Positions 1,405 to 31,204 of a stretch of 64,000 nt of DNA are shown here, piece by piece. Each line of letters begins with the position of its first letter. Position 1 is the stretch's first letter. Source of the DNA: Chlorobiota bacterium. GTDB lineage: Bacteria; Bacteroidota; Bacteroidia; Bacteroidales; JAADGE01. The stretch covers positions 1,570 through 65,569 of the forward strand of contig JAADGE010000009.1 of NCBI GenBank assembly GCA_013152535.1, given 5' to 3'. A program made the translations under genes and the position numbers. The notes below the pieces were generated by a model. The model was not told the origin of the DNA. It saw nothing but the letters and a program-made list of their open reading frames with translations, and ran no database searches.

Positions 1405-3729
1405 TCAGTTGTTTTTTTGTCTTAATGCAATTTCGGTAACCGAATTTTGTTTCAATATTTGATTATTTCCGAAAATTAAAAGTTCAATATTTGAATTACT
1501 TTGATTTTCGATTTTTACAATACTTTTTAAAACCTCAAATTTTAATAAAACACCTCTGAAACCTATTTTAAACGAATAAAATTTCCATTGTTCGGGAATA
1601 AAAGGTTCGAAACTTAATTTATCATTTTTTACTCTCATACCGGCAAAACCTTTAACAATTGTCATCCAAGTTCCGCCCATACTTGTAATGTGCAAACCAT
1701 CTTCGGTGTCGTTGTTGTAATCGTCTAAATCAAGCCGCGAGGCATTTAAATAAAATTCGTATGCGAGCTTTTTATCTCCTATTTTTGACGCAAGAATTGA
1801 GTGAATACAAGATGATAGTGAACTTTCGTGAACAGTCATCGGTTCGTAAAAATCAAAGTTTCGACGTATGGTATCAATTTCGTAATCTTCTTCAAAAAAA
1901 TAGAGACCTTGCAAAACGTCTGCTTGTTTTATATAGCAGGAGCGCAAAATCCTGTCCCACGACCAATATTGGTGAATGGGGCGTTCGAGATGTGACAGTG
2001 CTGATGCAGGTATTAATTCTTTATCTGAAAAGCCGTCTTGTTGCAGGAAAACTTTTCGTTTTTCATCGTAAGGTAAATACATATTATTAATTATTTCCTC
2101 CCAATGAACTGTTTCATTTTCAACAGTAAAATTCGTTTTTTTAATAATTCTGTTATATTCTTCGGGATAATTTTCTTTAACGAAGTTAAAGCTTTCGATT
2201 GTGTATTGAATTGTCTTGCAGACAAGTAAATTCGAATACCAATTATTATTTACGTTATTTTCGTATTCGTTGGGTCCGGTAACTCCGAGCAAAACATATT
2301 TTTGCTTATTTTTTGAAAAATTAACACGTTGTGCCCAAAAGCGAGATATTCCTATCAAAACTTCTAATCCGTATTCGGCAAGATAATATTTGTCCCCGGT
2401 ATAACGAATGTAATCTTTTATTGCATAAGCTATTGCGCCGTTTCTGTGGATTTCTTCAAAAGTAATTTCCCATTCGTTGTGGCATTCTTCTCCGTTCATA
2501 GTAACCATAGGGTAGAGGGCTGCACCGTTTTTAAATCCGAGTTTTTGGGCATTCTCAATTGCTTTTTCCAAATGCTTGTAACGATATATCAGAAGTTGTT
2601 TTGCAACTTTTTGATCTGCCGTGCTCAGATAAAAAGGCAGGAGATAAGCTTCGGTATCCCAATAAGTGCTGCCTCCGTATTTTTCACCGGTAAAACCTTT
2701 TGGCCCGATATTAAGTCGCTCATCTTGACCTGTATAGGTTTGGTTAAGTTGGAAAATATTAAATCTTATGCCTTGCTGTGCAGCAATATCACCTTCAATA
2801 ATAATATCACCTTTTGTCCATTTTTTTTGCCAGGCAAGCTCTTGTTCATTTAATAATTTTTCATATCCTTTATCTTCGGCATATTCTAAAATTTCATAAG
2901 CAATTTTTGCAAGTATATTTTTTTCGTAATACATTGAAGAAGTAACAGCTGCAAATTTATAAATTGTTGTTGTTTTTCCCTTTTTTACGGGAAGTGTAAA
3001 CTTGAAAGCTGCATATTTTTCTTTTTCAATTTTCTCAAGATTTTCTAAAGGTGTACTTTTCCCGTCAAATTCTGTTTTGATATCGGCAGCAGTGCAAACA
3101 CGAAAGTTTGTTTTTTTAGTTTCGGAAATTACATAGGGCCTAACGGCAGTTGATTTTTCAATTTCAATCCAAAATTTTTCGTCATAATTTGCATCTTGAT
3201 TCGAAATATCGGCTCTTATATCTGTTAAAACTTCAATTTCTCCTTCAAAATTAATCGGTTCAACAGAATATTTTATTACTCCGAGTTCGTCATTCACGAT
3301 ACTTAAAAAACGTTTTGACTTGATTTTAATTTTTTTGCCGCTTGGGAATTCTGCTGTGTAACGTTTACGGAAATAACCTTTTTCCATATTCAAAACGCGC
3401 TTGAATTCCGTAATTTTACATGTGTGTAAATCTAATTTTTCACCGTCAACTTTAATTTTAATACCTGTCCAGTCCGGAGCATTTAATACTTTTGCAAAAT
3501 ATTCCGGATAGCCGTTTTTCCACCAGCCCACGCGTGTTTTATCAGGATAATAAATTCCGGAAATATAATTTCCGTGTAAAGTGTTGCCGCTGTAATATTC
3601 TTCAAAGTTTCCTCTTTGACCGATTTTTCCGTTACCGAGACTGAAAATACTTTCGGATACCTTATTATACTCCGGTAATAGCCCCTCTTCAATAATTTTC
3701 CAAGGGTCGTATTTTATATATTGTTTCAT
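1405..3729 (-). CDS. GH65 family maltose (or kojibiose/trehalose) phosphorylase
   Basis: 774-aa ORF. The N-terminus KYDPWKIIEEGLLPEYNKVSESIFSLGNGKIGQRGNFEE and the GVTGPNEYENNVNNNWY block are typical of GH65 phosphorylases. It is adjacent to beta-phosphoglucomutase. Confidence 0.85.
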   Translation of the reverse strand: MKQYIKYDPWKIIEEGLLPEYNKVSESIFSLGNGKIGQRGNFEEYYSGNTLHGNYISGIYYPDKTRVGWWKNGYPEYFAKVLNAPDWTGIKIKVDGEKLDLHTCKITEFKRVLNMEKGYFRKRYTAEFPSGKKIKIKSKRFLSIVNDELGVIKYSVEPINFEGEIEVLTDIRADISNQDANYDEKFWIEIEKSTAVRPYVISETKKTNFRVCTAADIKTEFDGKSTPLENLEKIEKEKYAAFKFTLPVKKGKTTTIYKFAAVTSSMYYEKNILAKIAYEILEYAEDKGYEKLLNEQELAWQKKWTKGDIIIEGDIAAQQGIRFNIFQLNQTYTGQDERLNIGPKGFTGEKYGGSTYWDTEAYLLPFYLSTADQKVAKQLLIYRYKHLEKAIENAQKLGFKNGAALYPMVTMNGEECHNEWEITFEEIHRNGAIAYAIKDYIRYTGDKYYLAEYGLEVLIGISRFWAQRVNFSKNKQKYVLLGVTGPNEYENNVNNNWYSNLLVCKTIQYTIESFNFVKENYPEEYNRIIKKTNFTVENETVHWEEIINNMYLPYDEKRKVFLQQDGFSDKELIPASALSHLERPIHQYWSWDRILRSCYIKQADVLQGLYFFEEDYEIDTIRRNFDFYEPMTVHESSLSSCIHSILASKIGDKKLAYEFYLNASRLDLDDYNNDTEDGLHITSMGGTWMTIVKGFAGMRVKNDKLSFEPFIPEQWKFYSFKIGFRGVLLKFEVLKSIVKIENQSNSNIELLIFGNNQILKQNSVTEIALRQKNN

Positions 3730-25247: not shown

Positions 25248-26967
25248 TTAATTTTGAATTATAATTTTTTGAACGGAAACAGTATTTTTTACTTGTATTT
25301 TTATAAAATATATTCCCGGAGAAAAGTTTTTAATACAAATTTCGGAAGTGTTTTGTTTGCTTAAGATTAAATTTCCTCTGATATCATATATCATAATTTT
25401 ATTTGCTGTTTCCGATAATAAAATAAAATCAGTTGCGGGATTAGGATATATTTCGATATTGTTTTCGTTATTTTTTTCAACACTCACAGGCTTGCAATTC
25501 CATTCAGCTGTCCAGCCGCTTCTTACGGTTGCACCGTCGGAATAAAATTTTAGAGTTAAAGCGTTTCCGCTTGCTTCAACATAACCGGGGCTTGCCGTGC
25601 CCGAATATCCGCCTATTAACGGAGCATTTGTGTTGTATCCGTCATAAATCCATAAAGAATCATATCCGGTTTCCAGTTTAAACGAGCTGAAACTTAAAGA
25701 AAGTAAAGAAACATTGTCCGGTGCAATTGTAAAAATATAATCTTCATGGTTATAATGATTCCTGTTAGGACCTCCCATATCGTAAATCGTATAATTGCAG
25801 GGAGTTACTGAACAGTCTGTAACAAATCCCACATTTCGGAATATCCGTCGTCATATCCTAAAGCCCAAATTCCTATTCCTGCTAAATCTTGATGTTGAAT
25901 GACATCGTATTTATATTTCATGGTTTTTTTCGTATCAACCCAAGCCTGATGCCAATTTCCGCCCGAATAATATGTGTAATAACTGCACATACTGTTTTCA
26001 TTAAGTTTTCTTTCATCATAATAAGACGATGTATTATTTTTAATTGTTTTGATTGTTCTTGCTGTTCCTTTTGCCGGTGGTGAAGACGGCACATTTTCGC
26101 TTTCCGTTTTCCATTCGTATCCGTAATACGGAATACCGCAAAGTAATTTTTCTTTCGGAATACCGGCATATAAATAGGTGATTATTGATTTTGAAATATT
26201 GTAATCGAATGTATTCATTGTATAAAGTTGACCGGAAGGACCTGCAATACTGCTGCCGGGCCAATAATAATCATAAGCCATTATAATAAAAAGGTCAATA
26301 TAATCTCTCAGCAACGGAATATTATAAATATTATGCCAATCAACGGCAGGCAGAGCGATACTCACTTGAGAACCGGGAATGCTCGAATGAAATTGGTCGG
26401 CAAGATTTACAAGAAAATTATTCAATTGTACAGCTTCACTATCCGGAACAAGTTCAAAATCTATATTTACGCCGTCGGCATTTCTGTATTCGATCAAAGT
26501 AAGTAAATTGTCAATCAGGTTTTGTTGTGCCGAAGCATTCGCAAAAAATGCAGCATGATTATTAAAAAGTGTAACGCATAAATTTACTCTGACATTATTC
26601 GCTTGTGCAGAATCAATAACGGCGGCAGTTTTCCAGTTGTGCGTATTTACAGAATCCCCTGTGAGATAATCAACTTCATAAGAAAAAAAGATAAATCGGA
26701 TAATAAGTTCCAGTGATAATTCAAATATGAATTTCCGGACCAATAGGGATACCAGCCGAAAACCAGTTTTTGTAAATTGCATTTATCTTTACCGACGGGT
26801 AAAATTGATTTAATTTCGGTAAGTTTTTTATATTCTTTCGGAGAAAAAATTGCTAAAGAATCATAATATTCTTTTTGCTCTTTATGTGCAGAGTGCCTTA
26901 CATTTTTTTGAGAAAAAATATTAGCTGAAATAAATATCACTAAAATTGTTATTAAATTAAATTTCAT
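25248..26967 (-). pseudogene. GH18 (chitinase-like) - CUB - T9SS C-terminal-domain secreted protein, split into three frames by two frameshifts
   Basis: ORFs 26967-26647, 26782-25805 and 25832-25248 read as one protein. Order: signal peptide, LVFGWYPYWSG...LLSDLSFF|SYEVDY, GH18 motif DGVNIDFE, GIWALGYDDGYSEMW, CUB-like YDSLWIYDG, then T9SS CTD IEIYPNPATDFILL...GIYFIKI. Shift 1 is at the A7 run 26683-26689. Shift 2 lies within 25808-25850. Confidence 0.65.
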
Positions 26968-28128: not shown

Positions 28129-28202
28129 GGACCCGTAGCATAATTGGATAGTGCACCTGACTACGGATCAGGAGGTTGGGGATTCGAATTCCTCCGGGTT
28201 CA
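28129..28202 (+). tRNA. tRNA-Arg (anticodon ACG)
   Basis: Hand-folded 74-nt cloverleaf. Acceptor GGACCCG/CGGGTTC, D-stem GCAT/GTGC, anticodon stem CCTGA/TCAGG with loop CTACGGA, T-arm GGGGA-TTCGAAT-TCCTC, discriminator A. Confidence 0.9.
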
Positions 28203-28213
28203 CATTAATAATC

Positions 28214-28256
28214 AAAGCCTTGCAGAGATGCAGAGATGCAGGGCTTTTTGTTTTTT
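28214..28256 (+). terminator. Rho-independent terminator after tRNA-Arg
   Basis: AGCCTTGCA / TGCAGGGCT stem followed by TTTTTGTTTTTT. The loop contains the tandem GCAGAGAT GCAGAGAT. Confidence 0.7.
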
Positions 28257-28369
28257 GAATTCAACATACAAATTAGGTTTAGAAAACAATTAATGTCAGT
28301 ATTCATAGAAGTGAAAATGAATATAAATATTTCTCAGATTTTATCGCCGTAAATTTTAGGCAGTAAATC

Positions 28370-28465
28370 AAGTTTATCTGATTATTTGTCTTGTAGAATA
28401 CGATTTCTTTGCTTTAGATAAACTGTATTAGCCTTAAAATAAAATATTTATAAAAAAGTTTATCT
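28370..28465. repeat. three copies of the 9-mer AGTTTATCT (direct, inverted, direct)
   Basis: 28371-28379 AGTTTATCT; 28416-28424 AGATAAACT (reverse complement); 28457-28465 AGTTTATCT. Each direct copy is preceded by an extra A, giving the 10-mer AAGTTTATCT at 28370-28379 and 28456-28465. Confidence 0.6.
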
Positions 28466-28480
28466 AATTTAATTCCCAAA

Positions 28481-29155
28481 TTATCTTTTGAAATGTTCTT
28501 GATAGTATTTAATATTACCTCCATATTTCTTAATAAAAGCTTCTTTTGAAATATATCTGCCTTCTCCGTAGCCATAATCTATACCTTCTTCTACCCAAAA
28601 TAAATTTTCATCTCCGAAATCAAAGAAGATATTTCTTTTTGATTCTTCCCAACTTTTTTTCGGATAGCTCCACCTAAATCTTAAATATTTTTTTAAATTT
28701 TTGGAAATTTCATAAGATCTTTTTTTTTGATCATATTCAAAATATCTATTTTCTGTCTTAATCTCAAATCTTTCTTTAAAAGATATACCGTTTATTATCC
28801 ATAACATTTTATTACCATAAAATTCTTCTCTTTCTCTTATTATTTTTTTCGAGATTGGAGAATTCTGCAATTCAATCACAACTTTATTTTTAGTATAAAT
28901 ATCAGCAAAATGTTTTTTCCCGTCTTTCTCAAGGACAACTTCAGTATAATCTTTTCCAAAAGTCATTTTCCAATGATAATGCCATTCAGACTCCGGTTCG
29001 TACCAGCTTTCGCAACTACCATTCTTATAGTGAGACCAATGATGAATATTTATTTCACCGCACTTTGGAAATAATTTTTGTTCACATAAAGGACACTTTC
29101 CTGTTAATCCTTTTTTTGCTTCAATTTTTTCGTTATTTACTATAGCATATAACAT
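28481..29155 (-). CDS. CoiA-like family protein (zinc-finger plus PD-(D/E)xK-type nuclease fold)
   Basis: CPLCEQKL...HHWSH zinc-finger-like N-terminus. Also ESEWHYHWK, FADIY...VVIELQNSPIS and REREEFYGNKMLWIING, which match the CoiA family signature. Confidence 0.65.
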   Translation of the reverse strand: MLYAIVNNEKIEAKKGLTGKCPLCEQKLFPKCGEINIHHWSHYKNGSCESWYEPESEWHYHWKMTFGKDYTEVVLEKDGKKHFADIYTKNKVVIELQNSPISKKIIREREEFYGNKMLWIINGISFKERFEIKTENRYFEYDQKKRSYEISKNLKKYLRFRWSYPKKSWEESKRNIFFDFGDENLFWVEEGIDYGYGEGRYISKEAFIKKYGGNIKYYQEHFKR

Positions 29156-29163
29156 AAAATAAA

Positions 29164-30666
29164 TTATGCAATTTTTATAAAGTCAAACTCATATTCAAAA
29201 AGTTCAATATTAGGAAGAGATTTAACTAATGTTTTTAACTTATTCGTAGCTTCTTTAATGCAAATAATTCCTTTTACAGCCTGACCCGGTTTTGCTAAAT
29301 TATTTATTGTCCAATTAATATAATTTTGTATTTGCTCCACAACTTCAATGTCTGATTTTCCTCTTTTTAATTCAATAATTACATAAGAGTTATCTTCTAA
29401 ATTTTGTGTTAGAATATCCATTCTTCCGGTATCTGTTCTGAATTGACGACCATATTTGCTTGGGTCGTCAGCTTTACTATATATTTTAAGGTATTTTCCA
29501 AAAGTTTGCTTATTTTTTTGTAATCTGATTTCTAATAAGTCTTCTAAAATTTCTTCTAATTCCAATTGAATACCGGATGTCTTTTTATTCAAAGGAGAAG
29601 GAACAAAAGTTATTTCTTTTTCATCTTCAATAATCTTCTCACTCTCAAGAACAAGGTTTACCTTTGATGGTTCTATCCTTTTTTTATGTTTCTTTTTAAG
29701 TTTATTTATTGAATCAATTTCATTTTGTAATAATTTTTTACTTTTTGTTTTAGTCTTTAAAATTTCTATTACTTCCAATGCCTTATTAAATTCACCGGTA
29801 ATTTTATATACTCTTATTTTATTCCAATAAGGGTATAAACCGTCCTTTCCTAACTCAATACTTTTGTCAAGGTAGAATAATGCGTCATTATACATTTTTA
29901 ATTTATATAAACTATACCCCATTAAATTATTAACATGGGCAATATCGGTTTTTATATTTAAACTCTTCTTAAGAAATTTTACTGTGTTTTTGTAGTCCTT
30001 GATTAAAGAATAACTTTCAGCCAAATATAGGAAAATTGTCACAAAAAAGTCTTTCTGAATATCTTCAGTAAATTCAAGTGTTTTGTGAAAATAGCTTATA
30101 GCTATTCTATATTTTTTTGTAGCAAAGTATGTATAGGCAATATACAGAAAGGCATACCAAAAATTATTATCTATATCGGTTGCTTTATCAAATTCTTTAA
30201 TTGCTTGAGTATATTTTTCTTCAATTATAAGTTTATATCCTTCTAAGAATGGGATATATTCTTTGTTAACTGATTTAAATTTAAGAATATTAATAATTTC
30301 AACTATCAGTTCAAAAGCAACTGACTCATCCAATAAACCCAAGAAATAAATTAAATTGCTTAAATTCTCATAGTTTTTGTCATCAATTAAATTACTTCCG
30401 TATTTATCGACAAAAAGTTTTTTATAGTGTTCAATTTTTTCTTCCTTTTTCAGTTCAATATTCAAACGTAACCTATCGACAACAAACTGGTTATCCGGTA
30501 TTTTTGAAAACACATCATTAAGTTTATTAATATCTTCAATCGGTTTATGCTTTTGTGCGAAAAAAGTATCCAGCACTTGTGAGAGCTCCTCTTTTAGTTT
30601 AATATCATTAAGGTTTTTCTTAAACTGTTCAAGTAAGTTAAATAATTTGCTTATATCTTTTTTCAT
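29164..30666 (-). CDS. TPR-repeat protein with a C-terminal NucS/Shedu-like PD-(D/E)xK nuclease domain
   Basis: Central TPR-like repeats (AIKEFDKATDIDNNFWYAFLYIAYTYFATKKYRIAISYFHKTLE, ...YNDALFYLDKSIELG...). C-terminal GRMDILTQNLEDNSYVIIELKRGKSDIEVVEQIQNYINW gives a D...ExK...Q..Y arrangement as in NucS/DUF4263-type nucleases. Confidence 0.6.
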   Translation of the reverse strand: MKKDISKLFNLLEQFKKNLNDIKLKEELSQVLDTFFAQKHKPIEDINKLNDVFSKIPDNQFVVDRLRLNIELKKEEKIEHYKKLFVDKYGSNLIDDKNYENLSNLIYFLGLLDESVAFELIVEIINILKFKSVNKEYIPFLEGYKLIIEEKYTQAIKEFDKATDIDNNFWYAFLYIAYTYFATKKYRIAISYFHKTLEFTEDIQKDFFVTIFLYLAESYSLIKDYKNTVKFLKKSLNIKTDIAHVNNLMGYSLYKLKMYNDALFYLDKSIELGKDGLYPYWNKIRVYKITGEFNKALEVIEILKTKTKSKKLLQNEIDSINKLKKKHKKRIEPSKVNLVLESEKIIEDEKEITFVPSPLNKKTSGIQLELEEILEDLLEIRLQKNKQTFGKYLKIYSKADDPSKYGRQFRTDTGRMDILTQNLEDNSYVIIELKRGKSDIEVVEQIQNYINWTINNLAKPGQAVKGIICIKEATNKLKTLVKSLPNIELFEYEFDFIKIA

Positions 30667-30762
30667 TGTTCAATATTATTTTAAAACATAACTATTATAT
30701 TTCCGATATTTTCGAATTGAAATCTTGACTGTATTTGAAAGAATGTTTTTTTGTTTGTTAAA

Positions 30763-31204
30763 CTAAATAATATTTCCGTCTTTATTAAAACGTTCTCTTT
30801 TTGAGAAAAAGAAAGATGCTTCAATTTCGGCATTCTCATCGCTGTCCGAACCGTGAACGGCATTTGCCTGTATATCAGTAGCATATAGCTTTCTGATTGT
30901 TCCTTCGGCTGCGTCTTTAGGGTTGGTGGCACCTATTAATTTTCGATAATCTTCAACGGCATTTTCTTTTTCTAAAACTGCGGCAACAATGGGTCCTGCC
31001 TGAACTCATAAAGTCGGTTAATTCACCGTAAAAAGGTCTTTCTTTATGAACTTCGTAAAATTTTTCGGCATCGGCTTTGCTCATTCTGAACATTTTTATT
31101 GCCTGAATTCTGAAACCGCCGTCTGTTATTTTTTCTAATATTTTTCCCGTAAATCCTTTTTTTGCGGCAGTAGGTTTAATCATTGTTAATGTAATATTTC
31201 CCAT
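30763..31204 (-). pseudogene. ndk: nucleoside diphosphate kinase disrupted by a 4-bp tandem duplication
   Basis: [69 protein letters not shown] runs into a premature stop. The next frame continues [64 protein letters not shown] to the stop at 30763-30765. CCTGCCTG at 30995-31002 (coding strand CAGGCAGG) is the duplicated tetranucleotide. The 442-nt span minus 4 gives 146 codons. Confidence 0.7.

Follow-up and report, generated by a model that had tools for sequence, protein, structure and literature searches.

Two predicted nuclease genes between tRNA-Arg and ndk

The stretch of DNA analysed here (the window) comprises 64,000 nucleotides (nt) of contig JAADGE010000009.1 from a Chlorobiota bacterium, and in it two minus-strand genes separated by 8 nt (29156–29163) lie between tRNA-Arg(ACG) and ndk, an arrangement noted in a preliminary description and confirmed by the open reading frame (ORF) list, ARAGORN and Rfam. 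The upstream gene (29164–30666) encodes a 500-residue protein with TPR repeats and a nuclease domain of the NucS_C type, here called the TPR-nuclease, and the downstream gene (28481–29155; ORF list and Pfam) encodes a 224-residue short CoiA-like protein. The preliminary description had read the two as a sensor/effector module. We favour a different reading, to which we assign a probability of roughly 0.6, namely that this islet is a small acquired segment with two unrelated nuclease genes that move independently, stand in tandem only in this genome and form no conserved two-gene system, the TPR-nuclease being a candidate defence effector.

The motifs picked out earlier are present in the translations, both in the large protein (GRMDIL, VIIELKRGK and EQIQNY) and in the small one (CPLC...HHWSH, ESEWH, ADIY...IELQNSPIS and REEFY...LWII). 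Likewise, Pfam TPR matches and an AlphaFold2 (AF2) model recover the proposed helical TPR N terminus, K/E-rich linker and C-terminal domain of the large protein, and the assignment of both products to nuclease types agrees with Pfam profiles and with the invariance of catalytic residues. Profile matches support the prediction that both are PD-(D/E)xK-type nucleases. Because the genes share a strand and only 8 nt, without a terminator, separate them, they are probably co-transcribed.

The islet looks acquired, as had been supposed, because it is AT-rich and because DNA homology to the nearest relative is confined to exactly one ORF: 81% nucleotide identity between the window and that relative (locus L001) covers ORF 29164–30666 and ends at both ORF ends. 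The segment 28204–30680 has a GC content of 26.3%, against a window mean of 32.2% (s.d. 2.6) over segments of equal size, and no non-overlapping segment of that size falls below 26.3%. Given that one segment near 48.3 kb has 26.4% and that several single genes elsewhere in the window are equally AT-rich, the reported AT-richness is real but moderate. The islet shares with tRNA-integrated genomic islands an atypical composition between housekeeping flanks, but it has neither an integrase nor a repeat of the tRNA 3′ end at its far border. Only the two nuclease genes lie inside it. In agreement with the preliminary description, a scan allowing up to three mismatches found no tRNA-derived direct repeat anywhere in the window, and the segment is not framed by any meaningful repeat.

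The TPR-nuclease belongs to a broad family

AF2 secondary structure, Foldseek and two alignments (A4 and A5) define an all-helical TPR array at residues 1–328 of the TPR-nuclease (29683–30666, minus strand). It is followed by a K/E-rich linker that is predicted to be disordered (residues 329–365; 29572–29682, minus strand; predicted local distance difference test (pLDDT) < 50) and by a PD-(D/E)xK domain of the NucS_C/YhcG type (residues 366–500; 29167–29571, minus strand), which was identified by Pfam, PADLOC and a PDB profile search. In Pfam, TPR_1 and TPR_2 score above their cut-offs, NucS_C reaches 38.8 bits (cut-off 24) over residues 407–482 and YhcG_C matches below threshold. Residues 366–496 match positions 177–303 of the 308 in the PADLOC profile PDC-S02 (E = 9e-25). 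The NucS equivalogs of NCBIfam score far below their cut-offs (NF003270, 32.6 bits against 216; NF002876, 27.3 bits against 252), and their matches are confined to the C-terminal domain. A profile search with the TPR-nuclease family matched NucS in the PDB (2vld) at 2.3e-8. The profile used, A2 (418 positions), contains TPR columns, so that its PDB matches are mostly TPR proteins; in the scan of representative sequences it still placed true family members first. In PHROGs, the protein has a match at the TPR level only. The domain had been described as NucS/Shedu-like, and of this the NucS part stands, on the NucS_C score, whereas no match to Pfam DUF4263 or to PADLOC Shedu models was found at E ≤ 1.

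The AF2 model has a mean pLDDT of 78, rising to about 85–94 in the α/β domain (residues 366–497). In a Foldseek search of the PDB with the full-length model, the top 50 matches were all TPR proteins, down to E = 1.6e-9. Across homologues, the nuclease domain retains E371, E375, D417, E432-L-K434, Q445 and Y449 without exception, and family-invariant, non-structural positions of the TPR array include D166, W170, N247, G250 and D275-G-x-Y-P279...N282. Within the clade that contains the window protein, dN/dS is 0.14–0.20 overall and 0.05–0.15 in the nuclease domain, and it is this low even for pairs without an intact prokaryotic Argonaute (pAgo) nearby. These ratios show that the TPR-nuclease is under purifying selection, as judged from the coding sequences.

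A word-index search returned four full-length members, and the same search with the nuclease domain alone returned only two proteins. By contrast with these few, 6441 matches, 493 of them at E ≤ 1e-30, emerged when 1.84 billion representatives were scanned in full with HMMER, and many matches of 450–530 residues cover both the TPR and the nuclease parts. Members align over their full length at 24–31% identity. The TPR-nuclease is thus shown to belong to a broad family of proteins of about 500 residues that combine a TPR array, a disordered linker and a D-ELK nuclease. Outside this TPR-fused family, the sequences that the word-index searches placed closest to the nuclease domain are proteins of about 300 residues (P0005–P0007, P0130 and P0131; 35–41% identity), two of which carry an N-terminal EVE domain. 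Because it is fused to different sensor-like N termini, the NucS_C-type domain is thus a portable module. No relatives of the TPR-nuclease were found in IMG/VR. The metagenome scan used alignment A5, and most of the contigs it returned were short.

The CoiA-like protein belongs to a scattered family of solo, predicted nucleases

The CoiA-like protein matches the Pfam families CoiA_N (33.7 bits, cut-off 26.3; 2.6e-8) and CoiA_nuc (PF06054; 22.6 bits, cut-off 20.3; 1.3e-4), the latter over profile positions 36–104 of 158, or 44%; a published survey of CoiA took a PF06054 profile coverage above 50% as its criterion. The residues of a Zn-ribbon (C21, C24, C32 and H39/H42) and of a PD-(D/E)xK core (D85, E95 and Q97) are invariant across homologues, as are the motifs EPE..WH..WK, H82-A-D85 and I-E95-L-Q97-N-S, and a β-rich C-terminal domain is conserved. 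More than 288 homologues, of about 220–250 residues and about 50–56% identity, are found in Bacteroidota, Proteobacteria, Cyanobacteria and archaea. PADLOC, NCBIfam and PHROGs gave no match for the protein.

The AF2 model (pLDDT 84.8) had no significant Foldseek match in the PDB, where the best E was 0.6 and only faint PD-(D/E)xK echoes were seen. In BFVD, however, full-length structural matches were found among phage and giant-virus proteins (E = 6e-16 to 4e-14; TM 0.70–0.74), namely A0A516L083, two Hyperionvirus (giant virus) proteins and a Siphoviridae ‘competence protein’. Relatives are also encoded at 13 IMG/VR loci. The closest relatives lie in islands rich in hypothetical genes, together with integrase/excisionase or primase–helicase genes. 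When up to three neighbouring genes on either side were clustered, the largest shared family occurred in 4 of 79 loci, and a Pfam and PADLOC scan of 148 neighbours gave a housekeeping mix with scattered AbiE, methyltransferase, AAA_15 and Abi_2 genes. Longer variants exist, of about 500 residues (L043, L045 and L054) or about 390–430 residues (L026, L082 and L079). The 150–280 extra residues of the longer variants (330–500 residues) have no Pfam match, so these fusions gave no clue to function.

Taken together, these data show a large, sporadic and horizontally scattered family of solo Zn-ribbon and PD-(D/E)xK proteins, with a predicted endonuclease activity. No study of this short family was found in the literature searched. 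CoiA proper is reported to be a D-loop resolvase found in Bacillota alone, where it works together with RadA during transformation; its features are a Zn-finger, the catalytic residues D95 and E105 and a long C-terminal region (bioRxiv 10.1101/2024.02.06.579203). The islet protein shares the N-terminal Zn-finger, the PD-(D/E)xK core and a catalytic Asp/Glu pair 10 residues apart, but it is shorter (224 residues), matches CoiA_nuc in part, has a different C-terminal domain and comes from a host outside Bacillota, without competence or RadA context and from a family scattered in islands and viruses. The label CoiA-like given to it previously is therefore apt at the level of the domain superfamily but does not extend to competence CoiA. 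Setting the two apart prevents mis-annotated ‘competence’ genes outside Bacillota in a family that is large, conserved and spread from Bacteroidota to giant viruses.

Neither nuclease family has a conserved partner

The preliminary description had itself named a lack of co-occurrence outside this genome as the first finding that would speak against a two-gene system. The comparison was run in both directions and gave no pairing. A nuclease-domain hidden Markov model (HMM) matched no ORF in about 1.2 Mb of sequence within 5–8 kb of CoiA-like genes, drawn from 80 genomic, 13 viral and 3 metagenomic loci, and a CoiA-like HMM matched no ORF in 6, 80 and 5 loci of the nuclease family, which include every TPR-nuclease relative recovered. 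No two close relatives have the same gene downstream of the TPR-nuclease; the place is taken by an AlbA_2/HATPase_c_4 gene in L001, a gene for a 278-residue protein in L005 and one for an unrelated 253-residue protein in L006. The genes of L005 and L006 were considered as hidden CoiA-like genes and rejected by BLASTP and hhalign (probabilities of 21% and 0.3%). Neither nuclease family, then, has a conserved partner. Because the two families were never found together elsewhere in the loci examined, the proposed pair is not a system and should not be carried forward as a pair.

A link to long-B Argonautes in the window clade

Proteins of the window clade share 59–77% identity, and at all three other loci the TPR-nuclease gene directly follows a long-B-type pAgo gene or its decayed 3′ remnant. 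In L001, the closest relative (77% identity), it lies 19 nt downstream of a pAgo that matches the PADLOC pAgo model at E = 8e-187 (profile positions 282–674 of 674) and has AfAgo, RsAgo and EcAgo, all long-B, as its best PDB matches. The gene order there (L001:3–4224) is pAgo, TPR-nuclease and AlbA_2/Schlafen plus HATPase_c_4, with gaps of 19 and 12 nt, and the locus was assembled identically in four independent samples. AlbA_2/Schlafen plus HATPase_c_4 proteins are already known to associate with pAgos. The AlbA_2 protein of L001 also matches the N-terminal part of a 1121-position PADLOC pAgo profile.

In L005 and L006, a 5′-truncated remnant of the same pAgo 3′ end lies directly upstream of the TPR-nuclease gene, broken by a stop codon in the former and by an internal deletion in the latter, with an identical truncation junction in both (3′-end coordinates L001:1027–1235, L005:932–1140, and L006:651–746 and 3050–3159). 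A second remnant in L006 (81% identical) precedes a different gene. The remnant is 89–91% identical to L001 at the nucleotide level, whereas the adjacent TPR-nuclease genes are only 70–72% identical. This mosaic pattern of identity suggests an exchange of effector cassettes behind a conserved pAgo 3′ end. The decayed remnants and the mosaic identity hint at effector swapping behind Argonautes.

In the window, ndk and an unrelated 96-nt spacer stand where the relatives have the pAgo 3′ end. The spacer (30667–30762), between the ndk stop and the TPR-nuclease start, was compared by DNA alignment and blastn and is unrelated to the pAgo 3′ end found at the same place in relatives. A Piwi-like sequence was found nowhere in the 64 kb, and ndk is the gene next upstream of the TPR-nuclease.

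TPR-nuclease genes in defence islands and as single-gene insertions

Elsewhere, members of the TPR-nuclease family are found in defence islands or as single-gene insertions, and no pAgo was present at five distant loci (L185, L087, L088, L187 and L180). In L185 (979–11830), the gene directly follows one for a 492-residue RVT_1 reverse transcriptase, in a region that also holds type I restriction–modification genes (HsdM/HsdS), an AAA_14 ATPase and DUF5906, a gene content typical of defence islands or mobile elements. The gene adjoins a TumE toxin in L087 and a WYL/HTH regulator in L088, and in L180 it follows a housekeeping-like gene. In L187 (3352–4806), it forms a single-gene insertion between hypF and hypC of a hydrogenase-maturation operon. 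A gene of the 23S_rRNA_IVP family is inserted slightly beyond it there.

Given the PDC-S02 match and the relatives near pAgo, restriction–modification, reverse transcriptase, TumE and WYL genes, a defence role for the TPR-nuclease is plausible, as read from sequence and context. To this extent the defence role proposed earlier is kept for the TPR-nuclease, but not for a paired system.

Comparison with known systems and a possible mechanism

In the Argonaute system EcBPAN, the effector EcbAgaN consists of an α-helical switch domain at the N terminus, joined by an unstructured linker to a D-EVK nuclease at the C terminus, and forms an autoinhibited dimer that is activated by the pAgo–guide–target complex; this complex recruits bAgaN through its N-domain and drives oligomerization of the nuclease (PMC10620215, PMC13535254). 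When the AF2 model is set beside the published description of EcbAgaN, the TPR-nuclease shares the helical N-domain, the flexible linker and the C-terminal PD-(D/E)xK domain, and the layout of L001 is alike, with the TPR-nuclease directly behind a pAgo whose best solved relatives are long-B. The differences are that the catalytic domain is of the NucS_C/YhcG type, that the N terminus is a recognizable TPR array whereas the N-domain of bAgaN was reported to have no structural homologues, and that the window gene, like most of the wider family, has no adjacent pAgo. None of the PADLOC Aga_* models matched the TPR-nuclease, and no mention of TPR-containing pAgo partners was found in the literature searched.

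The closest sequence relatives of the catalytic domain are PADLOC PDC-S02 and the nucleases of about 300 residues that combine an EVE domain with a NucS_C-type domain. These have the same single-gene design, in which a sensor-like N terminus is fused to a nuclease, but the match to PDC-S02 covers only the C-terminal part of the profile (about 127 of 308 positions) and the N terminus of the TPR-nuclease is TPR rather than EVE or another domain. No functional study of PDC-S02 was found in the literature searched, which left out papers naming PDC-S02. With NucS/EndoMS (PDB 2vld and 5gke), the TPR-nuclease shares a RecB-like PD-(D/E)xK domain with the ELKR and Q...Y motifs; it differs in lacking the NucS_N DNA-binding and dimerization domain, in scoring far below the equivalog cut-offs and in its sporadic, island-like distribution. 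Shedu (SduA, DUF4263), another nuclease of the PD-(D/E)xK superfamily, likewise acts in defence by itself and has a regulatory domain at its N terminus. By analogy, the TPR-nuclease may work as bAgaN or PDC-S02-type effectors would, with a sensor-repeat N terminus and a nuclease, linked to pAgo in one clade.

From the structural model and the analogy with these effectors, we infer that the TPR-nuclease could be an autoinhibited DNase effector. Its TPR domain would serve as a protein-binding sensor or switch, and binding of a trigger would release the nuclease domain or cause it to oligomerize; the freed domain could then degrade DNA in a defence of the abortive-infection type. In the closest relatives, the trigger would most likely be the complex of the long-B Argonaute with guide and target, because the TPR-nuclease directly follows that pAgo, and at loci of the L001 type it probably plays the role of bAgaN. 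The window protein, parted from pAgo, may act alone, with the TPR domain sensing another protein, or may be an orphaned effector. The CoiA-like protein, by analogy with CoiA, could be a solo endonuclease with structure or site specificity that is carried as island or viral cargo, in a defence role or a selfish, homing-type one.

A more specific possibility, which we consider less likely than not, is that the TPR-nuclease clade represents an undescribed type of long-B Argonaute effector. It would be BPAN-like, with a TPR switch and a NucS-type catalytic domain, would form a modular cassette behind a conserved pAgo 3′ end and would be able to persist alone, as in the window beside the CoiA-like nuclease. 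If it is a true effector, the TPR-nuclease would add to the single-gene ‘sensor repeat plus nuclease’ defences a widespread family, with thousands of nuclease-domain matches and dozens of sequence clusters of the full layout, and would link that family to long-B Argonaute systems, the effector repertoire and activation rules of which are still being mapped. The pAgo–TPR-nuclease cassette is a concrete, testable lead that lies mostly outside the window.

Alternative explanations

The proposal that both genes form one defence or DNA-processing module, in which the TPR domain senses and the two nucleases act jointly, draws on their shared strand, the 8-nt gap with no terminator and the presence of two predicted nucleases in one AT-rich segment; moreover, at all four clade loci a different same-strand gene follows the TPR-nuclease after 8–63 nt, which could be a slot for exchangeable partners. 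We nevertheless consider it highly improbable, because the families do not co-occur in about 190 loci of both, homology to the nearest relative stops at the TPR-nuclease ORF, the downstream genes of relatives are unrelated to the CoiA-like gene, and in distant family members the downstream gene is a housekeeping or a convergent one. Still less credible is a pair of housekeeping repair or recombination factors, one cutting mismatches as NucS/EndoMS does and the other, CoiA-like, resolving D-loops in natural transformation. The Pfam matches to NucS_C, CoiA_N and CoiA_nuc agree with it, as does the Asp–Glu spacing of 10 residues (D85/E95 here and D95/E105 in Streptococcus pneumoniae; bioRxiv 10.1101/2024.02.06.579203). 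However, the NucS equivalogs give 27–33 bits against cut-offs of 216–252 and the N terminus is TPR rather than NucS_N; CoiA proper is confined to Bacillota, other bacteria using YraN/ComM; and both families are sporadic, in variable contexts and AT-rich here, with the CoiA-like family also in viruses.

The islet might instead be the stranded remnant of a BPAN-like locus, in which the TPR-nuclease requires a long-B pAgo and is either served in trans or inert and decaying. At the other three clade loci, the gene follows pAgo or its remnant, the domain logic equals that of EcbAgaN, and the frameshifts in ndk and in a GH18 gene indicate that decay or sequence errors occur on the contig. Yet the ORF in the window is unbroken and retains every catalytic residue, dN/dS stays at 0.14–0.20 even when the copies compared have no intact pAgo, pAgo genes are missing from the surroundings of most members of the wider family and the 64-kb window contains no Piwi-like sequence; we judge this reading unlikely. 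For the CoiA-like gene taken by itself, a selfish, free-standing endonuclease of a homing or mobile type, rather than a host defence gene, is conceivable but in our view doubtful. It would account for the absence of a conserved neighbour, for about 50% identity across distant phyla including archaea, for copies in integrative islands, IMG/VR contigs, phages and giant viruses, and for a faint structural resemblance to the homing endonuclease I-Bth0305I and to T7 endonuclease I. Those PDB matches are not significant (best E = 0.6), however, no target-site or intron/intein context was identified, and many copies sit among ordinary chromosomal genes.

Several points also weigh against our preferred reading, in which two independently moving nuclease genes came to lie in tandem and the first is a candidate effector, and against the Argonaute link attached to it. 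The 8-nt spacing fits co-transcription and is compatible with a functional coupling specific to this lineage, and many metagenomic contigs of the nuclease family are short, which lowers the power of the co-occurrence comparison when it starts from that family. A defence role for the TPR-nuclease is drawn from context and from a domain-level match to an unvalidated PADLOC candidate, and a defence label for the CoiA-like protein is weak because its neighbours mix housekeeping with mobile and defence genes. No sequence similarity to EcbAgaN was detected by PDB profile search or single-sequence HMMER up to E = 10. The pAgo link is limited to one small clade, with one intact locus (in four samples) and two decayed loci from a single metagenome, and distant family members lack pAgo; in the window genome, the absence of pAgo covers the 64-kb window and not the rest of the metagenome-assembled genome.

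Borders of the islet

The genes flanking the islet are housekeeping genes (Ppx/GppA, NDK, DHH/DHHA1 phosphoesterase and FKBP isomerase). One border is ndk (30763–31204, minus strand), recognized from the sequence and the NDK profile. Its identity as the housekeeping border is as first described, but it is not intact: a 4-nt tandem duplication (cagg cagg, 30995–31002) causes a frameshift, and the NDK profile splits over two frames, with positions 3–71 in one and 68–134 in another. The gene is either a pseudogene or the product of an assembly error. Farther away, a GH18 glycosyl-hydrolase gene with a tail of the type IX secretion system (T9SS) kind (25248–26967, minus strand) appears split into three overlapping ORFs (26647–26967, 25805–26782 and 25248–25832). 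It may be another frameshifted gene besides ndk, which raises doubts about the sequence quality of the contig.

At the other border, tRNA-Arg(ACG) (28129–28203, plus strand) was identified by ARAGORN and by the Rfam tRNA model (62.2 bits), and Rfam and promoter/terminator scans of the islet gave nothing beyond it. An AT-rich non-coding spacer (28258–28480) separates the tRNA terminator from the 3′ end of the CoiA-like gene; no repeat, RNA family or gene remnant was detected in it. Directly 3′ of the tRNA, direct reading of the sequence revealed a terminator-like element (28214–28257, plus strand) made of an 11-bp hairpin whose arms, AAAGCCTTGCA and TGCAGGGCTTT, enclose a loop of 12 nt, and of the sequence TTTTGTTTTTT after it; with a loop longer than 8 nt, it escaped the consensus terminator scan. 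With its T-run, this hairpin is strong and abuts tRNA-Arg.

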